Below are positions 8,801-64,000 of a stretch of DNA of 64,000 nucleotides, in pieces. Below the pieces are notes generated by a model. The model was not told the DNA's origin, searched no databases, and worked only from the letters and a program-made list of their open reading frames with translations. The stretch's first letter is position 1. Each line of letters begins with the position of its first letter. The stretch lies in assembly GCF_003019035.1 (NCBI RefSeq), contig NZ_CP027448.1; one strand, given 5' to 3'. Source of the stretch: Escherichia coli (GTDB taxonomy: Bacteria; Pseudomonadota; Gammaproteobacteria; Enterobacterales; Enterobacteriaceae). Position numbers and translations under genes: made by a program.

Positions 8801-11094
8801 AGGGAGGCCGGTTCAGCCCGCCCCGGCACAACAACCGTCATCGAATCTTCACTGACGGATGCCACCTGCAGGCGGTCACCGCCGGAGACGCGGAGTCCGG
8901 GAATTTTCCCTGTCACCCTCAGACGCTCGCCGTCTGCCACCGGCATTTTTTCCGGCCGGAACAGCGACCAGCTGCTGTCCAGGGAGGAAATACGCACCAC
9001 CTGCGTTTCGCCCTGCGCATCCCGCAGGGTCAGGCTGTGACTCTGCGCCGTCACCCGATCGATAACATAGAGGTCATGACTGCGTGTCTCCGGGTTCCAC
9101 TGCTCCATCACCATCCCCGGACGGTACATATCCCGCAGATAACGGCTCCGGCTGTCCAGCCAGACCGGTGACAGAGCGGTCATGGTCACCTCCGGGTGTC
9201 CGAGCACGCCCTGTGTTTTCAGCTCACTGCGAACGGCCTGTGTCAGTATGGCCTGTTCCCGTACCCCGCTGACCTGTGCCACGCTCTCTTCTCCGGCTTT
9301 CACGCTGGCCGCAAAATCTCCGGCCAGCCGGGCATAGCGGACATTACGGTCCGGTTCACTGATGATGGTGGCCGGTCGCTGTTCTCCCCCCTGCCAGCGA
9401 TATGTGTTCACCCCGGCATCTTTCATGGCCATCAGTGCACTGCCTGTACCGGTTCGCTGCCCGCTGTCGGTTATCAGGACCTGTACGTTATGACGTGCGG
9501 CACCGTCCAGCAGGGTTAACGTCTCTTTCAGGGAGAGTTTTTCGCCCTGGTCAACGATAACAGTACTGCCCAGCGTGAAGGCCATGCCTTCCAGCAGCTG
9601 ACGACGTCCGGTTATCAGCTCACCGGACAGCCGTTCATCCTGCTTCAGGTTCATCTGCGAGCGACGGTCAGCAGCGATAATCTGCACTTCCCGCCCCTGC
9701 TCCCGGGCCATCATGACCAGTTCAGCCACCCGCTCACGCTGCCCGGCTGCACCGCCCTGCCCGGACACAATGGCCAGCGACGGACGGTCCTGTGCCAGAA
9801 CACTGACGGCATCGCTGTAGCCGGCCGTCCGGGGGACACTTTTCTCCGGATGTACGGTCACCCGGTTCTGTTTCATGATATCGCGACTGAGTGCCCGGAC
9901 TGACAGTTCATCGAGCACATGAATCCCGGACGTGAACAGCCCCTTCTCACGGTCAAGGGGGATGAGTTGCTCACGGCTGATGGCCTCATCGATACCGGCG
10001 CGTGCCCGTTCAATCACACCATTTTCCGGCGGCAGTATACCGACCGTTCTGGCCAGCACGTCCGTGTACGTAAACTGCACTTTTCGTTCACTTAATCCGG
10101 CAATCGCCTGTGTCACCGCCTGCTGCACATCCGGCCCCTCCTGTGAAACAGCCCCGGGCGCCTGCGTGCGGGTCTCCGCACGCTGATCCGCCGCGTCACG
10201 ATATGCCCGGATGTCGAACCCGGTTTCCTTCAGCGTCTGCATCCATTCAGCCATTCTGACTTCAGGATCGACGTGCTGTTTGGATTTTCGCGTATCCAGT
10301 GCCGCCACATCCCGGGATTTCAGCGAGGCGTCCTCCCCGACGGCCTCCCGGATAGTCTGCGAGCGTCCAGAAAAGGCCTCCACCGGTATGCCCAGCATTT
10401 CCCACATACCGTGCTGACCCACCACTTCGGTTTCATAGCCCAGCGCCTCAACCTGCTCTTTCAGTTTTTCCCGGTAGAGCCTGCCAAAGGCAATCTGATT
10501 AGCGTACACATTCTCAATGAACCCCGTTTTCCCCACTTTGTCACTGCTCAGTGTCTTCCATTCGCCGTTATGCTGCGTGACATTAGCCACCACCGCATGC
10601 GTGTGTAACTGTGGTTCCTGATCGCGACTGGTGTCGTGGTTAAACAGTGCCATCACCAGATTACCGGTCAGCACCGTTTCTGACTGTCCGTCCGTCATCA
10701 CCCGTGTGGAGGCCAGCGCCTCCACCTGACGGACAGCAAAATCCACGGCCTGGTTATGTGCTTCAATAAGACGTTTGTCCCCCCCGAGCATGGCCATCAT
10801 GGAGACACTTTTGGGAGCGGAAAAGGTCAGGTCGTAGCCGGGACGATGCCTGTTACGGCCATCCTGCATGCGGCTTAAATCCGCCCCGTCTGGCAACCTG
10901 CCCTCCAGAAGGCGGGTAAAGACATCCTTATCGACACTGCCCTGCAGCCCCAGTTGTTCAGCCCCCTGGCCGGCCCAGCGTTCTCCCATGCTGCCCAGCA
11001 CATAGTAATTATCCTTGTCGGTATAATAGTTCCCGGCACTTCCGGCCGATCTGACCTGCGCAATACTCATCATAAACGTATATCCCTTTGACAT
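5803..11094 (-). CDS. traI: TraI relaxase/helicase
   Basis: 1763-aa ORF ...MMSIAQVRSAGSAGNYYTDKDNYYVLGSMGERWAGQGAEQLGLQG..., essentially F TraI; start may be a few codons inside the ORF. Confidence 0.97.
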   Translation of the reverse strand: MSKGYTFMMSIAQVRSAGSAGNYYTDKDNYYVLGSMGERWAGQGAEQLGLQGSVDKDVFTRLLEGRLPDGADLSRMQDGRNRHRPGYDLTFSAPKSVSMMAMLGGDKRLIEAHNQAVDFAVRQVEALASTRVMTDGQSETVLTGNLVMALFNHDTSRDQEPQLHTHAVVANVTQHNGEWKTLSSDKVGKTGFIENVYANQIAFGRLYREKLKEQVEALGYETEVVGQHGMWEMLGIPVEAFSGRSQTIREAVGEDASLKSRDVAALDTRKSKQHVDPEVRMAEWMQTLKETGFDIRAYRDAADQRAETRTQAPGAVSQEGPDVQQAVTQAIAGLSERKVQFTYTDVLARTVGILPPENGVIERARAGIDEAISREQLIPLDREKGLFTSGIHVLDELSVRALSRDIMKQNRVTVHPEKSVPRTAGYSDAVSVLAQDRPSLAIVSGQGGAAGQRERVAELVMMAREQGREVQIIAADRRSQMNLKQDERLSGELITGRRQLLEGMAFTLGSTVIVDQGEKLSLKETLTLLDGAARHNVQVLITDSGQRTGTGSALMAMKDAGVNTYRWQGGEQRPATIISEPDRNVRYARLAGDFAASVKAGEESVAQVSGVREQAILTQAVRSELKTQGVLGHPEVTMTALSPVWLDSRSRYLRDMYRPGMVMEQWNPETRSHDLYVIDRVTAQSHSLTLRDAQGETQVVRISSLDSSWSLFRPEKMPVADGERLRVTGKIPGLRVSGGDRLQVASVSEDSMTVVVPGRAEPASLPVSDSPFTALKLENGWVETPGHSVSDSAKVFASVTQMAMDNATLNGLARSGRDVRLYSSLDETRTAENLARHPSFTVVSEQIKARAGETLLETAISLQKAGLHTPAQQAIHLALPVLESKNLAFSMVDLLTEAKSFAAEGTSFTELGGEINAQIKRGDLLYVDVAKGYGTGLLVSRASYEAEKSILRHILEGKEAVTPLMERVPGGVMESLTSGQRAATRMILETSDRFTVVQGYAGVGKTTQFRAVMSAVNMLPESERPRVVGLGPTHRAVGEMRSAGVDAQTLASFLHGTQLQLRSGETPDFSNTLFLLDESSMVGNTDMARAYALIAAGGGRAVASGDTDQLQAIAPGQPFRLQQTRSAADVAIMKEIVRQTPELREAVYSLINRDVERALSGLESVKPSQVPRQEGAWVPEHSVTEFSHSQEAKLAEAQQKAMQNGEAFPDVPMTLYEAIVRDYTGRTPEAREQTLIVTHLNEDRRVLNSMIHDAREKAGELGKEQVMVPVLNTANIRDGELRRLSTWETHRDALVLVDNVYHRIAGISKGDGLITLQDAEGNTRLISPREAVAEGVTLYTPDTIRVGTGDRMRFTKSDRERGYVANSVWTVTAVSGDSVTLSGGQQTRVIRPGQERAEQHIDLAYAITAHGAQGASETFAIALEGTEGSRKQMAGFESAYVALSRMKQHVQVYTDNRQGWTDAINNAEQKGTAHDVFEPKSDREVMNAERLFSTARELRDVAAGRAVLRQAGLAGGDSPARFIAPGRKYPQPYVALPAFDRNGKSAGIWLNPLTTDDGNGLRGFSGEGRVKGSEDAQFVALQGSRNGESLLADNMQDGVRIARDNPDSGVVVRIAGEGRPWNPGAITGGRVWGDIPDNSVQPGAGNGEPVTAEVLAQRQAEEAIRRETERRADEIVRKMAENKPDLPDGKTELAVREIAGQERDRAAITEREAALPDSVLRESQREREAVREVARENLLQERLQQMERDMVRDLQKEKTLGGD

Positions 11095-11154
11095 ATCCCG
11101 GCATCAATCCCACAATGGATATACACAAGACATATCCACATAAGGAGGCAAATA

Positions 11155-11382
11155 ATGGAAACCACCGTATTTCTCAGCAACCGCAGCCAGGCGGTCAGAC
11201 TGCCAAAAGCGGTTGCATTGCCGGAAAACGTAAAACGCGTTGAAGTGATTGCTGTCGGACGAACCCGAATCATTACGCCTGCCGGAGAGACATGGGACGA
11301 ATGGTTCGACGGAAACAGTGTCAGCGCTGATTTTATGGATAACAGGGAACAGCCTGGTATGCAGGAAAGGGAGTCATTCTGA
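11155..11382 (+). CDS. vapB: VapB/VagC-type antitoxin (AbrB/SpoVT-like)
   Basis: 75-aa ORF immediately upstream of and overlapping a PIN-domain ORF; typical vagCD arrangement. Confidence 0.75.
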   Translation: METTVFLSNRSQAVRLPKAVALPENVKRVEVIAVGRTRIITPAGETWDEWFDGNSVSADFMDNREQPGMQERESF

Positions 11383-11780
11383 TGCTGAAGTTTATGCTCA
11401 ATACCAACATCTGCATTTTTACGATAAAGAACAAACCCGCCAGTGTCAGGGAACGTTTTAACCTGAACCAGGGGAGAATGTGCATCAGTTCGGTCACTCT
11501 GATGGAGCTGATATATGGTGCAGAAAAAAGCCAGATGCCTGAACGTAATCTCGCTGTGATCGAGGGATTTGTTTCCCGCATTGACGTTCTGGATTACGAC
11601 GCTGCTGCTGCCACACACACCGGCCAGATAAGAGCAGAACTTGCCCGTCAGGGACGCCCTGTCGGGCCATTTGATCAAATGATCGCAGGTCATGCCCGCA
11701 GTCGGGGACTGATTATTGTGACTAATAACACCCGGGAATTTGAACGTGTGGGCGGCCTGAGAATTGAAGACTGGAGTTGA
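11382..11780 (+). CDS. vapC: VapC/VagD PIN-domain toxin
   Basis: 132-aa ORF with PIN-like pattern (MLNTNICIF..., ...LIIVTNNTREFERV), start overlaps the antitoxin stop. Confidence 0.8.
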   Translation: MLKFMLNTNICIFTIKNKPASVRERFNLNQGRMCISSVTLMELIYGAEKSQMPERNLAVIEGFVSRIDVLDYDAAAATHTGQIRAELARQGRPVGPFDQMIAGHARSRGLIIVTNNTREFERVGGLRIEDWS

Positions 11781-11788
11781 CCTGTTCA

Positions 11789-13942
11789 TCAGAAATCATC
11801 TCCCGGCTCAACATCCTCCCCGCGCTCCCGGTGCACATTAATGTTCACCTCTTCACGACGCTGCATCTGCTGCTGGATGTCCGGATGATTTTCCTGTTGC
11901 CATGCCTCATAAGCGGCCATATCCACCACTTCACCGGATTCACTGATCCCGGGTGGCAGTTGCTGTTCCATCTCTTCTTCCGGTTTCATTTTCAGCTCCT
12001 GCTCGATCCCCCCTACCGGAACATTCACACCTGAATCTGACTTCTTATCGTTGATGGCAGGAGACACCGGCTGTTGCGGCTGTTCAGCCTGAGTCACGTC
12101 TTCTCCGGAAACAACCTCCGGGACATCCGGTTCGAAGAGGCTGGCCATCTGACGACCTTCTGCTTCCCTTGCGGCAAGTACGGCACTCAGACGGTTCTCC
12201 ATTTCCGGGTTGATGTCACGCGGAATAAACTCCGGAGCGACCTTCGGTCGTGTCTGATATTTCAGAGAGAGTTTTACTGCCGGATACGGTCCGGGCAGGG
12301 TGACATAACAGGTCAGATCCGGCAGAGACTGAATGTCGGAATAACTGACCAGCGTCTGGCGCTCCATATCCTTACCGGTCGATACCCCGTCACGTACCGG
12401 ATCAGCACCGTAGGAATACTGCTCGCTGGCTTTCAGGTGCTCTTTCTCACCAATTTCACCGGCAGCGAACTCTGCAATCTTATGGCTGGGAGAACGGAAA
12501 AAGGCACGGGTGTTCATGACGTCAAACAGCGAGGCAGCCGCTTTCTCACCGTAGATATCTTCCAGCTGGGCATAGGACTGGATACCAAACACATAACAGC
12601 CACCGAACTTACGGGCTTCCGGCAGGATCTCCACCAGGTCCGGCAGTTTGTGTAACGTGGGTAACTCATCACAGAAAAACCACACACGACGGTTACGGTT
12701 TTCTCCCATTGCCAGCAGACCACGAATGGCAATGGACAGCCACATGGAGATCACCGGCTTCAGGGAGGCATGGGTGTCGGCATTCGACGAAATAAACAGC
12801 CAGCCGTTTTTCTGATCTTCCCGGACACCACGCATCCAGTCACGGATGGTAAAAGACTCACCGTTATGCTCAATCCCCTGCAGGTAACGGATGGCTTTCA
12901 CGTAGTTGGTCAGCACAGCACGGATGGAAATCGCCGTTTTCTCAATTTTCTCTTCCACCAGGTTGGCCGCCGGTGAATTACGCAGGAAGGTACGCAGTTT
13001 TTCGATTTTGATGGAAAGCAGTGTGTCCACCAGTTTGCTGTAGCTGCGGTTGGGGTCATTACGCATCAGGTACGCCGCTTCCGCAAAAATGGTACGTCCT
13101 GACCCCTGCCAGAACGGGTCCTCTTTTGTGCCCATCGGGATCAGCGTGTTCGCGGTATTATCAAAATCCGGCTGTGTCAGGCACTCCTTCCACAAATCCC
13201 AGGCGGCACAGCGGGCATCCAGCGGATTCAGGATTTTATCGATGGAGGGATCATAGTAACTTTTAACAAATTCCCCTGAACGGTCATAAATCACCACCAT
13301 ATCTCCACGCTGACGGGCGTAGTTGGCCAGACGACGGATAACTTCCGACTTACCGGCCCCGACCGTGCCGTGCAGACAGAAGTTCTGGATTTCGGAATCC
13401 CGGATAATCGGCAGGTCGCCAATCCGTATATCGGAGTCCTTGCCGTCTTTTTTCAGCATCCGGGCAACGTCTTTCGGATTGTCTGTCAGCTGACGACCAC
13501 CTGTGACTTCATTTTCGCTCTGTTGTTTACCCTGACGCCCCAGAATCCAGGAGACAACAAAGAAGGTAATCAGGCAAATAACCAGTGCCACAACTGTGGC
13601 CAGAACGAATGCGGACCATAGCTGCTCTCCGCACCAGATCATATATTTATCATGCAGTACCTGAGCAGCATTCATCCGGAAGGTTTTGCCGTAATACTGG
13701 ATCTCATATACCGGCTGGGACTTGATTAAATCCCGCATGCCTTCCAGCGTGGTACACCACCAGTAAATACAGCCGTTCACAAACGTCTGCCAGCTTATTT
13801 TTACCCATAAAACCAGACCAACGAGTATCCAGAAAAAAATAAACAGGCAGTAAAGCATGATATTGGCGATCTGGCTGAACATGCGGATACGCATGGACGC
13901 AATCTGACCGCCCTGGGTCATATCCTTTGCGTTAAAACTCAT
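11789..13942 (-). CDS. traD: TraD type IV coupling protein
   Basis: 717-aa ORF with N-terminal TM segments, Walker A GTVGAGKS and Q/P-rich C-terminus; matches F TraD and gene order. Confidence 0.95.
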
Positions 13943-14193
13943 GATGATATTCCGAAGAAAAAAGTCAGTCGGACTGATTATTAATGATGAAAAGATTAAT
14001 AACCGTTAAATTCCGGCTTCGCCGGCAACACTTCACGGTCGCACAAAGAATTTGCACAACCGCTCAGTGTTTTCATATTTATTTCGGAAACGCCGGGGAG
14101 AAATAAAATTTATTTTATTTCTTTCCGGGGTTGGACAACGAGCAAAGCGAGGCGTCAGTCAGGAGGCCGGTCAGACCAGCCTCCGGAAGATAA

Positions 14194-14925
14194 TCAGAGA
14201 ATATTTGCGATTGATTTGGCCAGCTGGTCTTCGAGAACAGGCTTCGCCTCTTCAAATTTCAGGTTAACCTTGTTCGCACTGGAGACCACACGGGTCTGAT
14301 ATTTATGCTGGTTACCTGTTTCAGTACTGGTCTGAATTTTCGCACCTGAAGTGCCCTGACGCAGGGCGGCAACATTATCTGTTGTCACCGTTGTCTTAGT
14401 ACGCTCTGCAATCTGCACATCCGTGATCATGGTATAGTTCACATCTTCCACCATCGCATCTGCAGCCATACCCACCAGACCAGCAGCAAGGCCCACACCG
14501 AGTGTGGCACCGGCAGAATTGGAATTATATCCGGTAATACCGGCACCTAACGCTGCACCAACAGCTGCGCCTTCATAACCACGGTTCAGCCATCCCTGAG
14601 ACTCCCGCAGATCCATCTTATCGGCCTTCAGCACATTCGCCTGAATCCAGTAGTAGGCTTTATCCGGAGAAGTCACCACCTGATACCCTTTTGCTTTCAC
14701 AGCATCAGCAATTTTGCCCTGCAGCCCACTCATGTCTTTATCAGACGTGTTTTTGATCTGCAGAAATACCGTGCGTTCGCTGGCGGGTTCAAGCCAGATG
14801 GTCTCACTCATCTGGGTCTTCACCTCAAGGTTACGCTTCTTGATTGCTGTGCTCATCGCACCACACCCTGAAAGGGCCAGAGTGGAACTGACCAGTGCAA
14901 CCATCATCAATTTTTTTGTTTTCAT
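14194..14925 (-). CDS. traT: TraT surface exclusion lipoprotein
   Basis: 243-aa [50 protein letters not shown]..., matching F TraT. Confidence 0.95.
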
Positions 14926-14938
14926 CCAAAATATCCTT

Positions 14939-15448
14939 TTAACTAACAGACTCTTTTTTGAACAGCCCTATTACTGAGGCTATAGCTGAGAGATTATAAC
15001 GATTTATGTCTATAGCATAAATAAAGAAAAAGATTATAAACAAAGCAATTAATAAAAACTCATATAAGAGTGTATGGGCAAATGAAACCATTGAAAAAGC
15101 AATCAAAAATGACAAGATATAAGTTTTGTTCTTATCATACATAAAAGATATAACTTTCGACTCATCTCTGAATTTTTCAGGGATAGCAAGATACAACATC
15201 ATTCCATTAGTAATGGCAACAAAAAGGATAAAACCCATTACGCCACTAAAACATATATCAAATCCGGCATCTCGGATATCAATTTTATCTGCCAGCAAAC
15301 GAAGAAATGTTGGCCATAATAAAACCCATAAAAACACATACCCCCCTGGCTTTATGACCTGTAATAATGGCGGGATATTAACCCCGTCTACAGAGAGTAC
15401 ATCCTTTAGTTTCTGTGTCTCCATTTTTATATCATAGTGAGTGATCAT
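14939..15448 (-). CDS. traS: TraS entry exclusion protein
   Basis: Hydrophobic 169-aa ORF between traG and traT, the conserved position of traS. Confidence 0.65.
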
Positions 15449-54375: not shown

Positions 54376-54423
54376 TTTGACTGTATGTGGATTCAGTTAT
54401 TAGAATGCTGTATATGCATACAG
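54376..54423 (+). promoter_or_regulatory. imp promoter with LexA (SOS) box
   Basis: TTGACT (54376..54381), 18-bp spacer, TAGAAT (54400..54405), then CTGTATATGCATACAG (54408..54423), a perfect CTGT-N8-ACAG box; a half-like box CTGTATGTGGATTCAG lies at 54381..54396. Confidence 0.7.
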
Positions 54424-54695: not shown

Positions 54696-55129
54696 GTACC
54701 GTTTATCACCGTCCGGCTGACCCTTCAGGCGATGACAGTTACGTGCGACCGTTGTTTGCCGATCGTTGCCAGGCCGGTTTTCCTTCGCCTGCCACTGATT
54801 ATGCTGAGCAGGAACTGGATCTGAACAGCTATTGCATCAGCAGACCTGCAGCCACCTTCTTTCTGCGCGCCAGCGGTGAATCGATGAACCAGGCTGACGT
54901 GCAGAATGGTGATCTGCTGGTAGTGGACAGGGCCGAAAAACCACAACACGGGGACATCGTTATCGCTGAGATCGACGGTGAGTTCACCGTCAAACGACTG
55001 CTGTTGCGCCCACGCCCGGCACTGGAGCCGGTTTCAGACAGCCCGGAGTTCCGCACACTGTATCCGGAAAACATCTGTATTTTTGGTGTTGTCACTCACG
55101 TGATACACAGGACGCGGGAGTTACGCTGA
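54692..55129 (+). CDS. impA: ImpA (UmuD-like S24 peptidase-domain protein)
   Basis: 145-aa ORF with LexA/UmuD-type Ser-Lys dyad context (ASGESM ... K) and overlap with impB start. Confidence 0.85.
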   Translation: MSTVYHRPADPSGDDSYVRPLFADRCQAGFPSPATDYAEQELDLNSYCISRPAATFFLRASGESMNQADVQNGDLLVVDRAEKPQHGDIVIAEIDGEFTVKRLLLRPRPALEPVSDSPEFRTLYPENICIFGVVTHVIHRTRELR

Positions 55130-55251
55130 TGTTTACACTGGCTGATATCAACAGTTTCTACGCCTCATGTGAAAAAGTTTTCCGCCCGGACCTTCGCAAC
55201 GAACCGGTCATCGTACTCAGCAATAACGATGGCTGTGTGATCGCACGCAGC
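55126..55251 (+). pseudogene. impB: impB (UmuC-like Y-family polymerase), 5' fragment cut by insertion
   Basis: MFTLADINSFYASCEKVFRPDLRNEPVIVLSNNDGCVIARS matches the UmuC N-terminus, then leaves homology and hits a stop at about 55284. Confidence 0.8.
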
Positions 55252-55301
55252 CCAGATTATGTGGAATTGCAAGTAACGTTGTAGTGCTGATGAGGAAAAT
55301 T

Positions 55302-57530
55302 TTATCTGACTACAATATTGATATCGTTTTCCGCAACAATCAGCATCACGGCAGGTAAACCCTCCACACGCATTTTCTGGTGTAATTTTTTGATTAAATT
55401 ATCATCTTCATTACTGGCTTTTGCGGAAAAGCCTTGTGGATGGGAGTGCCATTCGCCAACATAATCGACAACACGAGCGGTCAACTGGTGAACCCGTTCT
55501 AATGCTTCTTGTTGTCCCGCTTCTCCCCGGACAAAGGAGGCTGGAGAGGATTTACTGTCGATAGGTTCAGGGAGCACGTCAACCAGAATAATCGTTTTGT
55601 TCTTAAAATCTGTTATGCCAACAATTGCACCTCCTGTTTCATTAGGCAGTGCCTGTAAGCGGGTGTGCTGCAATTTTTGCGCTAAGCCCTGGTCATATTT
55701 AACAACCCATTCGCCAGAAATTATAGATACCACGGAATAGAGTTCAATTTCATGTGCATCCATCGCGCCTGATATTTCATCAGATACCCAGATACACAAT
55801 CGAGCATTTCCTTTGAGTGCAGTCTGGCGAAGTTGGCGTGAGAGGATACCGGCATGAACATGAATACATTCACTGGACATACGTACAGAAATATCCCGAC
55901 ATCCACCACCGACCCAACGATCGCCATAATTGTGCTGTAGGTGAGTACTTCCCCACTCACTGCTCAAAATTGCCCGATAGTATTGCCCCTCAATTGCATC
56001 AATTCGGCATTGTCTGTCTACATCCTCCATTAACATCACGCTAGACTGACCCGATGGAGTCAGAAACAGGCTAACTATTCTGGGTATATCATCTTTTAAC
56101 ACTAGAGTCCTCGGCACCTCAAAGGTGGTACTGACATCCACAACTAAGTCTGCCTCATTCATTGCCTTAGCAATATCATCATCGTCATCAAGAATACTTT
56201 TATGGATCGCCTGAGGGAGGGGCTCATGCGGATAAATAGATTTGGCAATATGCTGAATAATATGGGGTTTTGAGACTCCAATATGACAATCAAACCCAAT
56301 ATGGCGAGACAAATTATGTGGAAGAAGCCGATCTGGATCAATAAAAGTCCATGTCCCCCACCCCATTCGAATCCAAATATCAGCCAATGTACTACCAAGA
56401 GCGCCAACTCCAGCTAAAATACCTCGAAAAGCTGCACTCTCTGAATCAACAGCAGATATGTCTCTCGCATGTGTGGCCTTCATAGCCGAACGTATTTCAA
56501 CTGGTAAAAGCGGTAATTGTCGCCACTTGGTACTAATTGATCCGCCAAGAAGCCGTACGCGATGCTGTACTCCTCGCTCATTTTTTGGCGCCAGCATATC
56601 TAGTGCAGTGGCAAGTTCACCGAGTGAACTTTGCACAACATAGCCCATCACATCCGTACGTTCTGTTTCTCCGTTTCTTAGACGGGGGATCCAAAGCAGG
56701 ATAAGTAAGCCTTCTCCTTTACCAGACGTTGGGCGGATACCATCACTTGGTATTGCTTCATAAACAGCGTCAGTTAGTGGTTTTAGGAGCTCACTTCCCC
56801 ATTCATTAAGTTGTTCTTCTAATTTTCCCAGATTATCCGGGTATGTAGCCACCGTAGAAACATCGACAGGAGGAACAGCAATAGTTAATAAGCGAAATGG
56901 CTTAACGCTTGAGGTATCTTGTTCTGGTACAGCCCTTAAAATAATCGGTCGCCCCTCACTGACCATCTGGAGACTGAGCTTATTGTCAGTCGCGTGATGA
57001 TAATCGGGGTAATTGGCTGGCAAAATGAGCTGATAGGGACTCAAATAAAAAAGTTGCTCAAGTGGCTGATCTTCTCGATGTAGATGCAGTTCGGCCGATT
57101 CTCTAAGCCACCAAAAAATGCGCTCAAGGAATCTCTCGGGGGTCCAACTGCGCTCAACTGCGCTCCAGGAGGCCTCATATAGGCAAAGAATTCGTGGTGA
57201 GCCAGGTTCTCCAGCATGCTGGTGAGAAAGAACAGGGAAATCTTTCCGCAATGCATGAACCAAGATAGGTATGCTTGATTTGGGATTGACCTCAATAGCC
57301 AATCGTTCTTTACGACGAATACGGGCTTGATTACCAGAAGCCACAGTCCCATCAGCAGCATCAATGATTAGATATTCCGAGCGGTTATCATTTATTTCAG
57401 AAAATCGTAATTCTCTGACTGTGACGTAAGGATGATTCTCGCATGCTTTAAGCAGCGAAATCGTTTGTGGATAAAGGCTATCGCGCCCCGATGAATCGAG
57501 GCGCTCACCCAATTCGAAATATTCGATCAT
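55302..57530 (-). CDS. Fused E2-like / E1-like (ThiF/MoeB) / JAB-MPN peptidase protein
   Basis: 742-aa ORF: N-terminal H...C pattern (HQHAGEPGSPRILCLY, UBC-like); central Rossmann GILAGVGALGSTLADIWIRMGWGTWTFIDPDRLLPHNLSRH (E1 signature); C-terminal JAMM-like EWHSHPQGFSAKASNEDD. Confidence 0.75.
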   Translation of the reverse strand: MIEYFELGERLDSSGRDSLYPQTISLLKACENHPYVTVRELRFSEINDNRSEYLIIDAADGTVASGNQARIRRKERLAIEVNPKSSIPILVHALRKDFPVLSHQHAGEPGSPRILCLYEASWSAVERSWTPERFLERIFWWLRESAELHLHREDQPLEQLFYLSPYQLILPANYPDYHHATDNKLSLQMVSEGRPIILRAVPEQDTSSVKPFRLLTIAVPPVDVSTVATYPDNLGKLEEQLNEWGSELLKPLTDAVYEAIPSDGIRPTSGKGEGLLILLWIPRLRNGETERTDVMGYVVQSSLGELATALDMLAPKNERGVQHRVRLLGGSISTKWRQLPLLPVEIRSAMKATHARDISAVDSESAAFRGILAGVGALGSTLADIWIRMGWGTWTFIDPDRLLPHNLSRHIGFDCHIGVSKPHIIQHIAKSIYPHEPLPQAIHKSILDDDDDIAKAMNEADLVVDVSTTFEVPRTLVLKDDIPRIVSLFLTPSGQSSVMLMEDVDRQCRIDAIEGQYYRAILSSEWGSTHLQHNYGDRWVGGGCRDISVRMSSECIHVHAGILSRQLRQTALKGNARLCIWVSDEISGAMDAHEIELYSVVSIISGEWVVKYDQGLAQKLQHTRLQALPNETGGAIVGITDFKNKTIILVDVLPEPIDSKSSPASFVRGEAGQQEALERVHQLTARVVDYVGEWHSHPQGFSAKASNEDDNLIKKLHQKMRVEGLPAVMLIVAENDINIVVR

Positions 57531-58714
57531 TGGTTTGATACACCTGCCCTAGGAGCGGCGGCCGTAGCAGCACTTACCGCAGCTGAAACAGCACCAACAA
57601 TAGCGGGTATTAACTTCCCGTCTCCAGCCACTTCAAATTCAAGGAACGCTGTATCTTTAAGATCCCCCGTACAGCTAAACCAACCATCAACACTGTCCAG
57701 AATATCCTCATACTCACGCTTAGCCCGGATGCACGGTGGATCATAATCATCATCAAGTATCTGATTGCTACTCGATACAATTGTTGCCCCGGAACGAGCC
57801 TGACCTAAAGCATTACGGGCCGCATCACAAACTTCAGCATTCTCCCCCCATTGTGACCAGCTATCATAGGAAAGTGAATGCCATGAACAATGATGCGGTG
57901 TGAGGAGAAGATCATATTCTAGTGCCTCAGCATTGCTTTTGTAACGATCCCATAATCGCTCCCAGATGAGAACTTCTGCGTCTCCACCTAATAGAAAGTG
58001 CATAGGATTACGGGAATATGCAGAGGGCAGTATTTTCATGTTCATGATGATACTGGATTCGTTTTTAGAAAGAGCTTCTTCCAAATATTCATCATCTTCA
58101 TGTGGTGCGGGCGCCAGAAGCTGTGCGGAGAACACTTCTGAAATTTGCCCGTCAATTCTGGTGAATGTATCTCCAGCTTTGATAAGAATGGCACTCAGAT
58201 CATCTGTTTTGCCATTAATATCTTCACCCATGATAAGGATTCGATTACCGCTAGATGCATAACCATGTTCCCGCCAGTATTTTACTCGGCGCCGTGCTTC
58301 TGTATTAAATGCCTGAGCATCTTCGCAAAGTGTGTGACTTTTGGAACGACGCCGAAAAATCAATGGTGATGACCACAATTCTCGAATAATGATACGCTTT
58401 TCTGAACGTTTCACATCGTCATCTGGATAATCTTCAGGACGGCCCAGCCAGAAATGTTTACGCAGGCCACCGCAATGATCCTGATCGGGATGACTGAGCA
58501 TAAAAACATCAATAAAGGGACGATCTTTTTCATCATACTTCAATCTGCTACGTAATGCCGAGGCAACATCAGGTGTGTCATCATTGGGGTTATCAGCAGC
58601 AGAGCGAATATGTACATCAATCAGAATGGATGTGCCCCGGGTGTCGGCCAAACGTACCAGTGTCATATCACCGTTGCCGACTTGGAAAAAAGTAATTTTG
58701 GCTGCCATCGACAT
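57527..58714 (-). CDS. Metallo-beta-lactamase-fold protein
   Basis: 395-aa ORF with HPDQDHCGG (HxHxDH metal site); stop overlaps the downstream start (ATGA). Confidence 0.8.
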   Translation of the reverse strand: MSMAAKITFFQVGNGDMTLVRLADTRGTSILIDVHIRSAADNPNDDTPDVASALRSRLKYDEKDRPFIDVFMLSHPDQDHCGGLRKHFWLGRPEDYPDDDVKRSEKRIIIRELWSSPLIFRRRSKSHTLCEDAQAFNTEARRRVKYWREHGYASSGNRILIMGEDINGKTDDLSAILIKAGDTFTRIDGQISEVFSAQLLAPAPHEDDEYLEEALSKNESSIIMNMKILPSAYSRNPMHFLLGGDAEVLIWERLWDRYKSNAEALEYDLLLTPHHCSWHSLSYDSWSQWGENAEVCDAARNALGQARSGATIVSSSNQILDDDYDPPCIRAKREYEDILDSVDGWFSCTGDLKDTAFLEFEVAGDGKLIPAIVGAVSAAVSAATAAAPRAGVSNQ

Positions 58715-58767
58715 CTCCTTTAGGGATACGAAAGATTGAGGTTAAGAGCATCTATTGCTAAGATACA

Positions 58768-58796
58768 TCTAGTAATTATACTAGTCTAGTAATTAG
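58768..58796. promoter_or_regulatory. Direct repeats in the divergent promoter region; candidate operator
   Basis: tctagtaatta at 58768..58778 and 58785..58795, in the 128-bp gap between divergent operons. Confidence 0.35.
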
Positions 58797-58842
58797 ACGT
58801 ATATTTTGGACTTAAATTGTAAGTACAGGAAATTATTGATAA

Positions 58843-59697
58843 ATGAGTGATAAAATGGTGAGAACTGGTCATTGGAGCCAAGAAAGACGGCTTGAATTCA
58901 TCGATTTTCGCCTACTGTGGGAAGGTCGGCTTAACCGTGCAGATCTCACGACATTTTTCAGAATTTCAGTTCCGCAAGCCTCATTAGATTTGGCAAAATA
59001 TCAAGAAGTTGCGCCAAACAACATGGTGTATGATCGAACTCAGAAGGCTTACATTACGACTCCTGATTTCAAACCTGTTTTTACAAGCTTTGACAGTAAT
59101 CATTACCTGAATGAACTACTTGGGCGAGAAAATGAAATAGTGGATCCTGATGATAGTTTCATTGGGTGGGTACCCCCGGTAGCCAGCCTTCCTCTCCCTG
59201 CCAGGAAAGTACAACCTGAAATATTGATTGATTTAATTCGAGCCATGCAAAGAAAACAGGCTTTGGTTGTTGATTATCGCTCAATGACTAATGAACCAGC
59301 AATTCGTACGCTATACCCAACAGCATTTGCACATGATGGGCATCGGTGGCATGTTCGTGCTTATTGTTTTAAGTCTACAATGTTTAAAGATTTTGTTCTT
59401 GGTAGGTTTTTTAAAATCGTTGAATTTGTTTCCCCACCGACATCAATTCCACAAGATGTGGACTGGAATACATTTATTGACGTGGTAATAGGTCCAAACC
59501 CTAACTACGATATGAATAAACGGCTATCTATTGAACATGATTATCAAATGGTAAAAGGAGAAGCAAAAATCCACATACGTAAAGCGCAATTATATTATCT
59601 TAATCGTCGATTAAATTTGGATGTAAATAGCGATGGTTCAATAGATGACAAACAGCAGATCATCATGCTCAGAATAGACGAGTCTAAAACCTATTAA
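58843..59697 (+). CDS. wHTH-WYL regulator (BrxR/CapW-like)
   Basis: 284-aa ORF with N-terminal HTH-like region and WYL-like segment LVVDYRSMTNEPAIRTLYPTAFAHDGHRWHVRAYCFKSTMFKDFVLGRF. Confidence 0.65.
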   Translation: MSDKMVRTGHWSQERRLEFIDFRLLWEGRLNRADLTTFFRISVPQASLDLAKYQEVAPNNMVYDRTQKAYITTPDFKPVFTSFDSNHYLNELLGRENEIVDPDDSFIGWVPPVASLPLPARKVQPEILIDLIRAMQRKQALVVDYRSMTNEPAIRTLYPTAFAHDGHRWHVRAYCFKSTMFKDFVLGRFFKIVEFVSPPTSIPQDVDWNTFIDVVIGPNPNYDMNKRLSIEHDYQMVKGEAKIHIRKAQLYYLNRRLNLDVNSDGSIDDKQQIIMLRIDESKTY

Positions 59698-59709
59698 GGG
59701 AATATTTAT

Positions 59710-60228
59710 ATGAATGCGAATGATGTTAACAAACGGAATAAAGAATGGATGATTGTAATCATTATTATCTATCTTTTTATTTTGTTATGTATAGCAACAT
59801 ACGCTATTGGGGCTATGTCTCTAGGTTGGTTACCAACACCTTACGCACCATTAAGGGTGCCACTGATGTGCGGAGCAATTGCCTATATAGGTGGTTGTTT
59901 ATATTGTTTTCGTGCAATTTACCTCAATAAATGTATTAGAAAACAATGGGATCCAGATTGGCATGTATGGTATTTCATTCGCCCACTGACCAGTACAATC
60001 GCAGGTGCTATCAGTTATTTATTCCTTAAGGCGGGGTTGTTAGTTTTGGAGTCTAGTTCCAATGTAGGAGCTAGTGAAATGGGTTTCTTTGCGCTGGCAT
60101 TTATTGCTGGTTTTAACGTCGATAAATTTGTCGCAAAAATCGAGGAAGTTGCAAAGGCTGTCTGGGGTATTGAAAAAACTCGAAGCTCGACTAATAATGA
60201 TGCGAAAAATTCGGAAAAAAAAGAATAG
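59710..60228 (+). CDS. Small multi-pass membrane protein (about 4 TM helices)
   Basis: 172-aa hydrophobic ORF 13 bp downstream of the regulator gene. Confidence 0.6.
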   Translation: MNANDVNKRNKEWMIVIIIIYLFILLCIATYAIGAMSLGWLPTPYAPLRVPLMCGAIAYIGGCLYCFRAIYLNKCIRKQWDPDWHVWYFIRPLTSTIAGAISYLFLKAGLLVLESSSNVGASEMGFFALAFIAGFNVDKFVAKIEEVAKAVWGIEKTRSSTNNDAKNSEKKE

Positions 60229-60274
60229 TCTGGATGTATTTAAATTAAAATGAAATTAGTGCTGAGCTATTTTA

Positions 60275-61594
60275 TTACTTTCTCTTATTTCCTGGGGTCG
60301 CGCCCCCAGTGAGCTTATTCAAAAGTTTGTCCACTGCCTGTATATCGTTTTCTACAGCGGCTTGTTCGTCATCAGTCAAAGGGATTTCCTGCATCAGCTT
60401 GAGTAGATTCTGGCGACCTTCCAAGTATTGTGCTTCAGATGAAGATTTTGGCATATAAAATGAGCATTTTGCACATGCCATCCGATGGGGGCATTGCTCA
60501 AAAAAGTCATAAGTACAGAAACCGTGTCCAAGATCATAATAACGCCATGGCTTCCCGGATGCTACCAGCCCTTCAGCTATCGCGTCTTGATCAATGAGAA
60601 CTGAAACCATGCGGCGATTACATTCAAAGTAACCAGCTTTATCCAGTGATCCTGCCAACCTCGTCGGTGTAATTTCGACATAATGTCGGGTAGATTCAGG
60701 TGAAGAATGCCCCAACCATTTCTGTAGCTCAAAAATATCAAGTGGTTCCCTGGCGTTGTAAAGCTGACTGGCTATAGTGGCTCTTGCCCGATGGCTGGTG
60801 ATTTTACCTCTGGCATCCTGCTCAGGTATACCAGCCTTTCTGCATAGCAAAGGGATTAGCGAATTATTAATATAACTACTGTGTACCCGTTTCCCCCTGT
60901 GCATGAACAAAAAACGGACGCTTTCACCTGTTTTAGAATCTTCCTGGAGGGGGTGGGGGTTACGAACAAGTTCCCATTGTTCGATATATTCCCCGATAAT
61001 AGGGTCAACTGGCTTTGTGAATGCCGCGTAAGTCTTGCTAACGGGTACATCTATCAGACAGATACGGGATACATTATTTTCTTCTGGCTGTTGCCAGCGG
61101 ATACACCCACACTGCATACGTAGAATTTCATCACGTCTGAGGCCTCCAAATAACCAGAGAACGCTGAGTGCTCTGACCATCTCCAGTGGATAAAAATAAG
61201 GATATGCAACACAGTTTGGTAAATCCGACTCCTGCAGGTTCTGTCCGGCGTGAAGTAATTTACACCACATATCATCGGCCACAATACGAGGCTCTGGTCC
61301 AACCAGGGAAGTCAAGCTACGCGGTGCCCTGAAAACTCTTTCTGGGCTGAATCGTACAGGTATCCATCCCCATTCCTGCAAGTCATGAAAGAAAGTTCTA
61401 ATATGACCCAACATCCTGGCTCTCGCTGCAGGCATCATCATTTTGCCACGACGGTCACGATACATGCCCCCAGGGGTTGCCCATTCACCAACTTTCATTC
61501 TACAAGCGGCGGTCACCCAGACGATCGCGGTGTCCCGTGTCCAATCAGATGGTGACAGACAGGTTGGATAGCACTCAGCTAACCAGCTGACCAC
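60275..61594 (-). CDS. Tyrosine recombinase (large, with C-terminal Cys/His cluster)
   Basis: 439-aa ORF with GGLRRDE, HRARAT, LGHSSPESTRHY catalytic-type motifs and CPHRMACAKC cluster. Confidence 0.8.
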   Translation of the reverse strand: MVSWLAECYPTCLSPSDWTRDTAIVWVTAACRMKVGEWATPGGMYRDRRGKMMMPAARARMLGHIRTFFHDLQEWGWIPVRFSPERVFRAPRSLTSLVGPEPRIVADDMWCKLLHAGQNLQESDLPNCVAYPYFYPLEMVRALSVLWLFGGLRRDEILRMQCGCIRWQQPEENNVSRICLIDVPVSKTYAAFTKPVDPIIGEYIEQWELVRNPHPLQEDSKTGESVRFLFMHRGKRVHSSYINNSLIPLLCRKAGIPEQDARGKITSHRARATIASQLYNAREPLDIFELQKWLGHSSPESTRHYVEITPTRLAGSLDKAGYFECNRRMVSVLIDQDAIAEGLVASGKPWRYYDLGHGFCTYDFFEQCPHRMACAKCSFYMPKSSSEAQYLEGRQNLLKLMQEIPLTDDEQAAVENDIQAVDKLLNKLTGGATPGNKRK

Positions 61595-62525
61595 ACTTTA
61601 GCAAAACGTACCAACCGGACAAAATAGATGAAGGGCGAAGTACTGAGGTAGCACGCCACCGTTTGCACCATACCAGCCATTTAGTTGGTACATCAGCTGT
61701 TGCATTATATTCGCGGGGAGGACGGCGACGTTGTGTTATTCGGTAATCAACCCCTTCCTCAATAGTCCCTGATGCAGCCAGTATACGCGATAGAGTAGCT
61801 GAGGCTTCCCGGAGGGAATCCGGGCACGTTGCAGCAATCTGTTGCAACGTGGTCACGGTGATATGGTCTAGTTGAGCATCCCTTTGCAGAAGCATTGCCA
61901 TACACATGGCATTTCTGATGCCGTTGTTCCGACTATCACGAGGCACATATCCCAGAACCTGCATCATATTGTCAAGCTGGCTGACGGCAAAATCGGTGCT
62001 CTGTCGGCCAAAAACCTTAAGACAGAGCCGATATTGATAGAATATGCCACAGTGTTCCAGCCGCTCAAACCCACATAGCAACCATGCTAACGCTATAACA
62101 TATTGCCGACAGTTGCCGCTGGCTCCAAACCGTCGACGAAATTCCCCTTCGCTGTTGCAAATAACTTCTAACCACTCTTCTTGTGTCCAGGCCCAGTATG
62201 TTTTCCGGATGCGCTGCATCTCTAGGACTATATCGTGAATAGATGAATTGTAGGGGGCCTTGGCCGCATGCATTTTTGTTAGCGTGTCGCGTAGTGGTAA
62301 AAGAAGGCGGGAAAGCCGTTTTTGTATATCAGGTGACCAGTTTTTACCTCCTTGCTGGAAGTGGTCGACCAATGTATCCAGTGCCGCAAGCTCGCTTTCA
62401 GAGATCTCCGATCGGGTATCCCAAAGTAGGGCAGGAAGACTGAGTGATGTTGTCGGACAAGGCGCTGTATGTTCAGATTGCATCATGGAGAAGGATCCTG
62501 CTGTTGTAGTACAGTAAGGCGGCAA
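61575..62525 (-). CDS. Recombinase-associated ORF (overlaps both flanking recombinase genes)
   Basis: 316-aa ORF overlapping the upstream gene by 43 nt and the downstream gene by 20 nt; no catalytic motifs seen; could be an accessory protein or the frameshifted N-terminal part of the 439-aa recombinase. Confidence 0.5.
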   Translation of the reverse strand: MPPYCTTTAGSFSMMQSEHTAPCPTTSLSLPALLWDTRSEISESELAALDTLVDHFQQGGKNWSPDIQKRLSRLLLPLRDTLTKMHAAKAPYNSSIHDIVLEMQRIRKTYWAWTQEEWLEVICNSEGEFRRRFGASGNCRQYVIALAWLLCGFERLEHCGIFYQYRLCLKVFGRQSTDFAVSQLDNMMQVLGYVPRDSRNNGIRNAMCMAMLLQRDAQLDHITVTTLQQIAATCPDSLREASATLSRILAASGTIEEGVDYRITQRRRPPREYNATADVPTKWLVWCKRWRATSVLRPSSILSGWYVLLKCGQLVS

Positions 62526-63535
62526 GTATGCAAGGATGCGACCGTGTAATTGAAACGACTACTCAGATCACGTGCGCTGAGATGAATATAGAGCAGAGTT
62601 GACTGGATACGACGGTGGCCAGCGAATGCAGCAATTTCGTGGATGTCCCACCCCACGCGTGCCAGTTCTGTCAGACAAAGATGTCGGAATGTGTGGGTGC
62701 TGATGAGTGGAAGATCAGCCTTAATAGCTAAACCGCGAACTACTTTTGACCAAGTCCAGTTGCTAATAGGTTCTGCCCGATTACGCGGAGAGCGTGAGAG
62801 AAACAACGGACCGCGAGATGAGCTTAGCATACGACGTTCAGTGAGCCATGCTGTGTAGAGTTCCCCCGTCACAGGAGAATAGGGCACAACCCGACCAAAG
62901 CGGTTTTTGGTATGCTCAGCGCGCACAGTGAGCAAGCGTTGAGAAGGGTCAATATCTCCGGTAGCTACTGTGCAAAGTTCTTCTCTGCGTAATCCGCAGT
63001 CGTAGGCCAGTGCCAGCATAAAACGAGTACGGATATCAGCTTGTCCGGCTACCTCAAGAAAGCGCAACCACTCCGCATCATCCGGGATCCACGGTAGCCG
63101 CCGCTGCAACGGCACTATACCAGCTTTTCCTTTCCCTCCGTTTTTCCAGACACCTCGTCTGACAGGATTTCTCTCCCGTATCCCCTCCTCACAAAGCCAA
63201 TAGTTGTACAGTCGTACCACCGTCAGCCGGTGGCGGATAGTGGCAGCTGCCAGCTGGCGACCGGTATGCAGGCTGCGGACATAGAGTGCGACCGTATCAC
63301 GTCCAGCGACAGCAGCCGTCAGGGCAACAGAGTGACAGAAAGCGAGCCAGTCATTGACGCCACGGGCATAGGCATCAATGGTGTTTGGAGCACACAGCAG
63401 GTCCTCCTGCAGGCACACCCACCGGCAAGCTGAAGGATCGGCCGACAGAAAAGGCAGCGCATCCAGCAGTTTCTTGTGCACAGCATCCCCCTTTTCGATA
63501 ACAGAATGTGTTGTATGAAATATAGTCAATTCCAA
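62483..63535 (-). CDS. Tyrosine recombinase (XerC/D-like)
   Basis: 350-aa ORF with GLRREE, HTFRH, GHRRIQSTLLYIHL catalytic-type motifs. Confidence 0.85.
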   Translation of the reverse strand: MELTIFHTTHSVIEKGDAVHKKLLDALPFLSADPSACRWVCLQEDLLCAPNTIDAYARGVNDWLAFCHSVALTAAVAGRDTVALYVRSLHTGRQLAAATIRHRLTVVRLYNYWLCEEGIRERNPVRRGVWKNGGKGKAGIVPLQRRLPWIPDDAEWLRFLEVAGQADIRTRFMLALAYDCGLRREELCTVATGDIDPSQRLLTVRAEHTKNRFGRVVPYSPVTGELYTAWLTERRMLSSSRGPLFLSRSPRNRAEPISNWTWSKVVRGLAIKADLPLISTHTFRHLCLTELARVGWDIHEIAAFAGHRRIQSTLLYIHLSARDLSSRFNYTVASLHTCRLTVLQQQDPSP

Positions 63536-63543
63536 ATAACATA

Positions 63544-64000
63544 GAAGCGAAGCGGCTGGGCATAAAAATGGGAGTACCGTGGTTTCAGCTGAAGTCGGTG
63601 AAATTTCCGGAGCCGGTCATCGCCTTCTCCAGTAATTACGCGCTATACGCATCGATGTCGAACAGGGTTATGTCTCATCTCGAGGAGCTGGCGCCGGGCG
63701 TGGAGCAGTACAGTATTGATGAGATGTTTCTCGACGTGCGGGGTATTGACAGCTGCATCGATTTCGAGGATTTCGGCCGGCAGCTGCGTGAACACGTCAG
63801 GAACGGGACTGGCCTGACTATCGGTGTCGGAATGGGGCTAACCAAAACGCTGGCAAAGTCAGCACAGTGGGCTTCCAAAGAGTGGCCACAGTTTGGTGGC
63901 GTGCTGGCGTTAACGCCAGGCAATATCCGCCGTACGGAAAAACTGCTGTCACTGCAGCCGGTGGAGGAAATCTGGGGGGTAGGCAGCAGGATATCAAAGA
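63544..64000 (+). pseudogene. impB: impB (UmuC-like), 3' portion after the insertion (continues beyond window end)
   Basis: In-frame EAKRLGIKMGVPWFQLKSVKFPEPVIAFSSNYALYASMSNRVMSHLEELAPGVEQYSIDEMFLDVRGID... matches the UmuC region that follows the N-terminal fragment. Confidence 0.8.

Follow-up and report, generated by a model that had tools for sequence, protein, structure and literature searches.

A probable two-recombinase integrative element with a predicted 6A-MBL anti-phage system in the impB gene of an Escherichia coli contig

Background

The umuC-family genes of SOS mutagenesis operons, rulB among them, are a published hotspot for integrase elements (PMC4542609, PMC8547460, PMC10121019). 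Rhodes et al. reported that 'integron-like elements' (ILEs) insert actively and in a rulB-dependent manner into pWW0, with impB, mucB, umuC and rumB among the disrupted homologues, and umuC has been proposed as a hot spot for tmexCD1-toprJ1 (PMC8547460). The rulB ILE of the Pseudomonas syringae pea plasmid pMUP32a lies after rulA and splits rulB into a stub and a remainder, between which stand, in this order, an integrase, a large recombinase and a type III effector. In E. coli, umuC/umuD is defence-island hotspot #23, occupied in 9 of 1,297 genomes in the published table as we read it (Hochhauser et al. 2023, PMC10121019). Here we analyse a stretch of 64,000 nucleotides of the E. coli contig NZ_CP027448.1 (RefSeq assembly GCF_003019035.1), hereafter the window, in which impB, the umuC-like gene of the imp operon, is split by an insert that very probably represents an integrative element with two tyrosine recombinases and that carries a predicted anti-phage system. 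An earlier note on the window, made from the sequence alone, had likened the insert to known site-specific elements in repair genes, a likeness that the published rulB/umuC hotspots bear out.

Published work already covers the target gene, this type of element and its cargo, and the locus is in this respect a clean example and no discovery. We found no description in the literature, however, of this two-gene family in enterobacterial plasmids together with the junction rule set out below.

Results

An ImpB-like reading runs from position 55129 to ...VIARSP, a total of 42 codons, and then switches abruptly to ATTATGTGGAATTGCAAG; at the right junction TCAATTCCAAATAACATAG is followed by AAGCGAAGCGG, which translates as EAKRLGIKMG, and impB resumes at ~63544-63546. 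The earlier note had the gene broken after about 42 codons at 55251 and resuming in frame at about 63544. Both the codon and the resumption in frame held, but on the left the target extends as far as 55256 (55254-55256 allowing for a GA common to the junction, which permits three equivalent joins, all three leaving the frame open). Aligned to intact homologues as that note had proposed, the joined halves form a continuous protein of 194 residues, open to the window end, which matches residues 1-194 of intact ImpB without a gap (71% identity, E 1e-102) and E. coli UmuC likewise (60% identity). The insert thus occupies 55257-63545 (8,289 bp), after impB codon 42, and G+C content drops by ~10-20 points across its borders, from 54-60% in the flanks to 35-50% inside. 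The imperfect inverted repeats said to bound it are present as 13-bp inverted arms (Table 1), and the motif TTATKTGGAATTG occurs at these two places only in the window, where 0.22 matches would be expected by chance and two matches appeared in one of 100 shuffles.

The rest of the operon is as the earlier note described it, with impC and impA intact by comparison with pEC224_2 and the LexA-box promoter undisturbed: a promoter-like TTGACT-18-TAGAAT (54377-54406) is directly followed by the LexA box CTGTATATGCATACAG (54408-54423), the sole match to CTGT-N8-ACAG in the window. ImpA and ImpC stay under LexA control. ImpB is inactivated. Y-family polymerases require an N-terminal catalytic aspartate, here D6; it lies on the 42-codon stub, so that the 3' part could not yield an active polymerase even if it were expressed, and this part also has no start of its own.

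Two side observations concern the split gene itself. The 5' part of impB, like the first 49 nt beyond the junction, is ~96% identical to the common IncI impB, and from ~63593 the 3' part (window 63546-64000) falls below megablast range against the same gene; impB looks like a mosaic produced by recombination near the element. A promoter-like ATAACA-17-TATAGT (63498-63526, plus strand; 9 of 12 matches, a consensus match only) sits within the integrase-proximal end and is directed outward into the impB 3' part.

Table 1. Coordinates of the features of the imp operon and of the insert in the window
Feature	Position	Strand	Remarks
imp promoter-like site and LexA box	54377..54423	+	TTGACT-18-TAGAAT; LexA box CTGTATATGCATACAG; intact
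impC, DinI-like, 82 aa	54447..54695	+	intact; same sequence as WP_000618110.1 of pEC224_2; also annotated in near-identical pSE11-2
impA, UmuD-like, 145 aa	54692..55129	+	intact; one substitution vs pEC224_2 UmuD
impB 5' stub, 42 codons + 2 nt	55129..55256	+	final 6 nt CCCAGA (55251-55256) = target's own spacer, adjoining cargo-side arm
Cargo-side (integrase-distal) arm TTATGTGGAATTG	55257..55269	+	
6A-MBL Cap2/Cap3-like fusion (E1-like adenylyltransferase + JAB isopeptidase), 742 aa	55302..57530	-	NF058523.1; PADLOC E1-E2 and JAB models
6A-MBL MBL-fold protein, 395 aa	57527..58714	-	NF058524.1
WYL-domain transcription regulator (BrxR/CapW-like), 284 aa	58843..59697	+	divergent from defence genes; 99.5% copy named 'BrxR family' in RefSeq
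Hydrophobic protein, 172 aa	59710..60228	+	no family match; retained with cargo in 81-83% element variant
Large tyrosine recombinase, C-terminal 439 codons	60275..61594	-	core-binding and catalytic domains, Cys-rich tail; N-terminal part severed by frameshift
Large tyrosine recombinase, N-terminal 316 codons	61575..62525	-	all-helical, no family match; frame-breaking extra base ~61588
Xer-like integrase IntA, 332 aa	62483..63481	-	GTG start after AGGGGGA; open frame reaches 63535
Integrase-proximal arm TTATTTGGAATTG	63527..63539	-	
Element-borne 6-nt spacer TCTATG	63540..63545	-	CATAGA on + strand; CATATA in diverged variant
impB 3' part	63546..64000	+	in frame with stub; runs past window end

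The recombinase genes that the earlier note had placed at one end of the insert are indeed there, as three overlapping minus-strand open reading frames (ORFs) of 439, 316 and 350 aa, but they make up only two genes, of which one carries a frameshift. Of these ORFs the 350-aa one is Xer-like, with its best scores against XerC/XerD models, and its likely start at GTG 63481 gives the 332 aa annotated in relatives. In the diverged relative NZ_CP054225.1 one ORF takes in both of the others, its residues 3-300 matching the 316-aa ORF and its residues 301-737 the 439-aa ORF, and a single 736-aa ORF is present in the copies of E. coli pAMSC6 (99.4% identical) and of Klebsiella (98.2% identical), from which the window and pSE11-2 differ by one extra A at ~61588 (GGTC[A]GCTGG). 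In all the more distant relatives the large recombinase is one ORF of 710-750 aa. Because a 1-nt insertion splits an ORF that is intact in the relatives, the apparent trio is, as judged from these alignments, a frameshifted pair, consisting of a Xer-like integrase and a 736-aa recombinase. Seeming recombinase trios can be frameshifted pairs, which calls for caution in annotation.

A true three-recombinase element of the RIT (recombinase in trio), GInt or SE (strand-biased circularizing integrative element) type, whose middle protein would have a non-catalytic tyrosine-recombinase fold, had been the first reading of this end of the insert. Three consecutive overlapping ORFs at one end suit such an element, as do the 13-bp imperfect inverted repeats with a 6-bp spacer, which are as described for SEs, and about 20 of the best 150 representatives of the N-terminal domain are in fact 310-335 aa long. 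The reading was rejected on the alignment of relatives and on BLASTP against two SE-type quartets, and we hold it to be very improbable: the extra base that causes the 316/439 split is missing from the 99.4% and 98.2% copies and from all distant relatives, there is no fourth small gene, the window pair had no significant BLASTP similarity to IntA, Tfp, IntB or Srap of one tmexCD2 SE and one pGRT1 element, and in the published table of the SE survey pSE11-2, a carrier of this element, has a score of 0 by our reading. When two of the short N-terminal-domain homologues were checked in context, one proved to be a degraded locus, and the other lay on contigs ending just past the gene.

Residues R450, H565, R568, H593 and Y602 (736-aa numbering) are invariant in 36 of 36 homologues of the large recombinase, whose AlphaFold model (pLDDT 83.5) begins with ~400 mainly helical residues, continues with a catalytic domain and ends in a Cys-rich tail. 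In a fold search the C-terminal two thirds matched XerA, the Tn1549 integrase, an integron integrase and Cre, and the N-terminal helical domain obtained no assignment. After the catalytic tyrosine there is a Cys-rich motif, ..C..CPHRMACAKC.. (window 60275-60700), which may bind zinc; C657, C671 and C674 are nearly invariant in the 36 homologues.

At the end opposite the recombinases lies the cargo, which the earlier note had called defence-like, and here the 6A-MBL models score far over their cut-offs: NF058523.1 reaches 661 bits against a cut-off of 320 (model positions 3-665 of 665) and NF058524.1 reaches 425.6 bits against 220 over its full length. The insert carries a complete predicted 6A-MBL anti-phage system, together with a WYL regulator and a small membrane protein. 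The anti-phage role of 6A-MBL is taken from the family name and from two papers that cite it (10.1101/2025.09.30.679545, PMC13276650). Both defining proteins of the described system (NF058523/NF058524) are found here at full length and over the NCBIfam equivalog cut-offs; in contrast to that system, they are linked to the WYL regulator and the 172-aa membrane protein and are carried on a umuC-targeting element. A host would gain a predicted defence together with a WYL regulator. Transcription from the imp promoter would run into the element antisense to both defence genes.

The junctions obey a common rule, which we state with the integrase written first, attL being the integrase-side and attR the cargo-side junction. 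In all attL examined the flank is followed by a hexamer foreign to the target and then by the arm TTAnnTGGAAT, and in all attR examined the arm is followed by the target's own hexamer and then by the flank. The attL hexamer is TCTATG in the window lineage, in a reversed Klebsiella copy (NZ_CP023917.1, our locus L003) and in one plasmid umuC copy (L005), TATATG in a second plasmid umuC copy (L002) and in Pantoea stewartii NZ_CP049117.1, and TATCTA in a Comamonas copy. The insertion hexamer shared by several umuC-family genes extends from the last base of codon 41 to the second base of codon 43, and at insertion no target bases are lost and none truly duplicated. The flanking GA was considered as a target-site duplication and rejected: a diverged variant has TA at this place in two independent insertions, and the GA dinucleotide is therefore element-borne.

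Since the element hexamer is always at the proximal arm and the target hexamer at the other, we infer that the product would be explained by a single strand exchange made at the spacer's 5' edge. Element and target spacers have only their first 1-2 nt in common, as in heterology-tolerant elements, and the Tn1549 integrase on circular-intermediate DNA is among the closest solved structures. These two points would fit a two-strand exchange across a heterologous 6-bp overlap, in the style of Tn916/Tn1549 or CTnDOT, with the heteroduplex resolved by repair or replication. We consider this doubtful, because unbiased resolution should put the element spacer at either junction, whereas it was found at the proximal arm only in every insertion examined.

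In the reversed lineage (NZ_CP023917.1, L003) the hexamer is at the same gene position, and it starts with TA on the sense strand, whereas in all other targets it starts with TC on the antisense strand, which suggests that the first spacer bases may set the orientation of insertion. In this K. pneumoniae record (10275-11459) the first ~40 umuC codons are fused in frame to the integrase, and the product is annotated as a 394-aa protein. The recombinases of the reversed copy would fall under the SOS-controlled umuDC promoter; in the window orientation they are not downstream of the LexA promoter.

If joined, the ends would read CAATTCCACATAA-TCTATG-TTATTTGGAATTG, a 13-6-13 layout that, together with its inner bases (CATAA-N6-TTATG), resembles what we take to be the chromosomal dif site. 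That resemblance, along with the best scores of the integrase against XerC/XerD models, could point to an element that depends on host XerC/XerD and whose joined ends serve as a dif-like site for the host enzymes. There is next to no likelihood of this, given that two recombinases with full sets of catalytic residues are encoded by the element itself, that its target, a umuC coding sequence, is unlike dif, and that the outer arm bases differ from dif.

Comparative searches, which the earlier note had recommended, recovered both the same element at other umuC-like loci and empty sites. Some part of the element is matched by 330 plasmid records, 37 of which hold nearly all of it, and ~100 plasmids retain only the recombinase end and the impB 3' flank, the cargo having been removed by IS1. 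The large recombinase is found in 607 plasmid records (near full length in 430), and the element in 129 of 5,426 complete E. coli genomes, with 16 of its places being chromosomal. Approximately 2,400 plasmids align uninterrupted across the junction at ~96% identity and represent empty sites, as does locus L013.

Near-identical or related copies occupy the same codon in IncI impB (L009), in another plasmid umuC (L002, L005), in a Klebsiella mucB-like gene and in the chromosomal umuC of E. coli. In strains STEC299 and M18 a 99.4% identical element lies in the chromosomal umuC, between hlyE-umuD and dsbB, and an 83% variant is likewise placed in XJW9B263, where the element proteins have the same accession numbers as those of the EcPF16 plasmid copy, located in a different umuC. 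The insertions at the same hexamer that we count as independent are those in IncI impB, STEC299, XJW9B263, plasmid umuC, Comamonas and the reversed Klebsiella lineage. Relatives at the same place occur in a Klebsiella IncFII/IncR plasmid (with other cargo), in Comamonas (with ars genes), in Pantoea and in Pseudochrobactrum.

The two states of the large recombinase differ in their surroundings: all five frameshifted copies sampled share one 45-nt impB flank, whereas the four intact copies have several different flanks. On this ground the family is, as far as such comparisons indicate, mobile and site-specific, and the window lineage would have been inherited vertically. The 1-nt insertion that splits its large recombinase makes the window copy probably stuck, and most likely a vertically inherited relic. 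The earlier note had called the insert recombinase-driven, which fits a recombinase-bearing integrative element, but the copy at hand is probably driven no longer. It could still be mobile if both halves of the large recombinase were made, with re-initiation at GTG 61594, and cooperated in trans. In favour of this, the break separates the N-terminal helical domain from the remainder of the protein, the downstream ORF keeps the full catalytic domain, the two ORFs overlap by 20 nt, and related systems use separate proteins. Continued mobility is nevertheless unlikely, as GTG 61594 has no Shine-Dalgarno-like sequence ahead of it, the frameshifted copies stay on the one flank while intact copies are in several different genes, and many copies of the lineage have lost their cargo to IS1, which looks like decay.

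Several other loci are informative in their own right. On the chromosome of Providencia stuartii NCTC11800, outside umuC, two exact CAATTCCACATAA-TCTATG-TTATTTGGAATTG sites lie 2,387 bp apart (L018 5193-5224 and 7580-7611; L019 4170-13418). They separate gene pairs that are effector (peptidase M23 and lysozyme)/immunity-like, downstream of a truncated integrase homologue (63% identical), and the locus resembles an array of cassettes formed at this recombination site. On the Pantoea stewartii plasmid NZ_CP049117.1 (~6672-15220 of the locus), a single umuC holds two related two-recombinase elements ~100 bp apart, one at the codon-42/43 site and the other at a codon-80 site, each with the arm and spacer of its own subfamily. 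In the chromosome of E. coli M18 (NZ_CP010219.1) the left flank of the element is chromosomal umuC, and the right flank is an IncI-type impB, after which comes a plasmid ParA gene. A second copy of the element is present in the same record, which suggests that a plasmid may have integrated into the chromosome through two element copies.

The K. pneumoniae plasmid pKP18-231-1 (NZ_CP109608.1) has two umuDC loci, both occupied, one by a two-recombinase element carrying CBASS and the other by an SE-type quartet carrying tmexCD2-toprJ2; taken together, pKP18-231-1 and pGRT1 display four different insertion addresses in the first ~105 codons of umuC homologues. In metagenomic contigs (L022, L023, L026, L033, L037, L048) a full arm-6-arm site is found 100-250 nt upstream of integrase homologues, which are followed by large-recombinase homologues except in L048 (integrase homologue match only). 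The spacer of L022 is AGTAAG, as in the codon-80 subfamily, and none of these contigs is circular. Such loci may be tandem elements, or members that target sites like their own ends.

Discussion

The explanation that we favour with considerable confidence is that 55257-63545 is an integrative element inserted site-specifically in impB and belonging to a two-tyrosine-recombinase family, defined by adjacent genes for a Xer-like integrase of ~330 aa and a recombinase of ~740 aa. According to the mechanism that we propose, the element would be excised as a circle bearing the joined site, which the two recombinases would pair with a conserved umuC sequence; the product would be fixed by strand exchange at the 5' edge of the spacer only, where a match of 1-2 nt (T, then C or A) would perhaps determine orientation. 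The element has no transfer genes and would travel on conjugative plasmids.

Some observations weigh against this explanation or narrow its base. The orientation rule derives from one reversed lineage, and the reading of a single strand exchange from ~7 insertions, perhaps not all independent. In these comparative sequence data no circular form, excision scar or transposition was seen; the exact joined-ends site was absent from the metagenomes searched, and its sole occurrence in genomes is a chromosomal array and no circle, while a looser joined-ends pattern was found in 30 metagenomic contigs, none of them with terminal overlap. Upstream of the integrase, a search of both the integrated and the joined arrangement yielded no promoter-like site. 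The split large recombinase might still work, because other families use separate proteins, and the window copy is thus only probably immobile. Finally, the exact impB 3' allele of the window was never found uninterrupted in the plasmid search, so that the insertion may have occurred in another replicon and then have come here via homologous recombination.

A wider reading can be put forward only tentatively, and we would not call it probable as a whole: elements with an integrase and a 740-aa recombinase may form a distinct, unnamed family, characterized by single-strand exchange, umuC addresses and cassette arrays. It is prompted by the junction rule, by the Providencia array and by the metagenomic core sites just upstream of the integrase. 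As part of this reading, the family may occur widely among Proteobacteria and Actinobacteria and stand apart from SE, GInt, RIT and Tn554 (GInt and Tn554 being judged by description); its members may recombine at a dif-like joined site of 13-6-13 layout and integrate by exchange of a single strand, the first one or two spacer bases deciding the orientation; each of its subfamilies may have evolved a different fixed umuC address; and cargo cassettes devoid of recombinases may become stacked between repeated joined sites, in a literally integron-like manner, of which Providencia would be the example.

None of these findings changes current understanding. They describe how conjugative plasmids of E. 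coli, Klebsiella and Salmonella acquire anti-phage systems, namely through small integrase-only elements that have their landing pad in the conserved 5' part of genes of the umuC family; whenever a plasmid gains a defence island in this way, it loses its mutagenic polymerase. For a class described as having 'unclear mechanisms of mobilization' (PMC10121019), they further supply the exact junctions, a model of the core site and the sequence of an empty site.

Comparison with known systems

The trio families differ from the window element in gene content. RIT elements have three recombinases, each with a catalytic tyrosine, and terminal repeats of ~34 bp, whereas here the middle ORF is devoid of an integrase domain, being the N-terminus of a large protein, and the arms measure 13 bp. 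GInt elements (ginABCD; Tn6571 family), compared by description, have three recombinase-family genes and a small ginD, all required; the window element has no fourth gene, and its apparent trio is an artefact of the frameshift. Tn554 (TnpA, large TnpB, TnpC), likewise compared by description, agrees in its two-recombinase layout and in the lack of real target duplication, but no TnpC-like third gene was seen in the window element. The hosts of Tn554 are Firmicutes.

The ILE-FH1/pGRT1 elements and the tmexCD-toprJ carriers come closer. They too are tyrosine-recombinase elements without transfer genes and with adaptive cargo, and they have short imperfect inverted repeats, a 6-bp spacer and targets in the 5' third of umuC homologues. 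They differ in carrying the SE quartet of core genes, IntA, Tfp, IntB and Srap, instead of two recombinases. SEs leave a variable 6-bp footprint, which is copied from the donor site, at the integrase-distal arm, whereas the window family has a conserved foreign hexamer (TCTATG/TATATG) at the proximal arm; neither the four genes nor the distal variable footprint is found in the window element. The pGRT1 element is inserted at SN|NDG and the tmexCD2 element at YSID|E. Insertion '123 bp into rulB' had suggested that the pWW0/pGRT1 element shares the site of the window family, but this was rejected, since its SN|NDG point lies ~nine codons further upstream when the genes are aligned.

Hotspot #23 resembles the locus in its defence systems and several integrase genes, with no other mobility genes, at umuDC (PMC10121019). 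The likeness is one of target and described gene content, and the window family occurs in the chromosomal umuC of three E. coli strains. That survey covered chromosomes only and gave no junctions, recombinase family or mechanism.

The P. syringae rulB ILE of pMUP32a is the system that shares the recombinase pair, at 43% identity for the integrase and 35% for the large recombinase. It too interrupts a umuC-family gene of a plasmid behind a LexA-type operon, has the arm consensus TTAnGTGGAAT and carries an element-borne hexamer adjoining the integrase-proximal arm. It differs in being inserted after codon ~80 (SSNFAL|Y) instead of codon 42/43, in its spacer AGTAAG, in the direction of its recombinases, which is that of rulAB, and in an effector cargo in place of defence genes; a Klebsiella plasmid has restriction-modification cargo at the codon-80 site. 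The window element thus shares with the two-recombinase rulB/umuC elements a homologous adjacent pair and a fixed position in umuC-family genes with TTAnnTGGAAT arms, the address being constant for a given subfamily (codon 42/43 for that of the window element, codon ~80 for that of P. syringae and pY9645-166).

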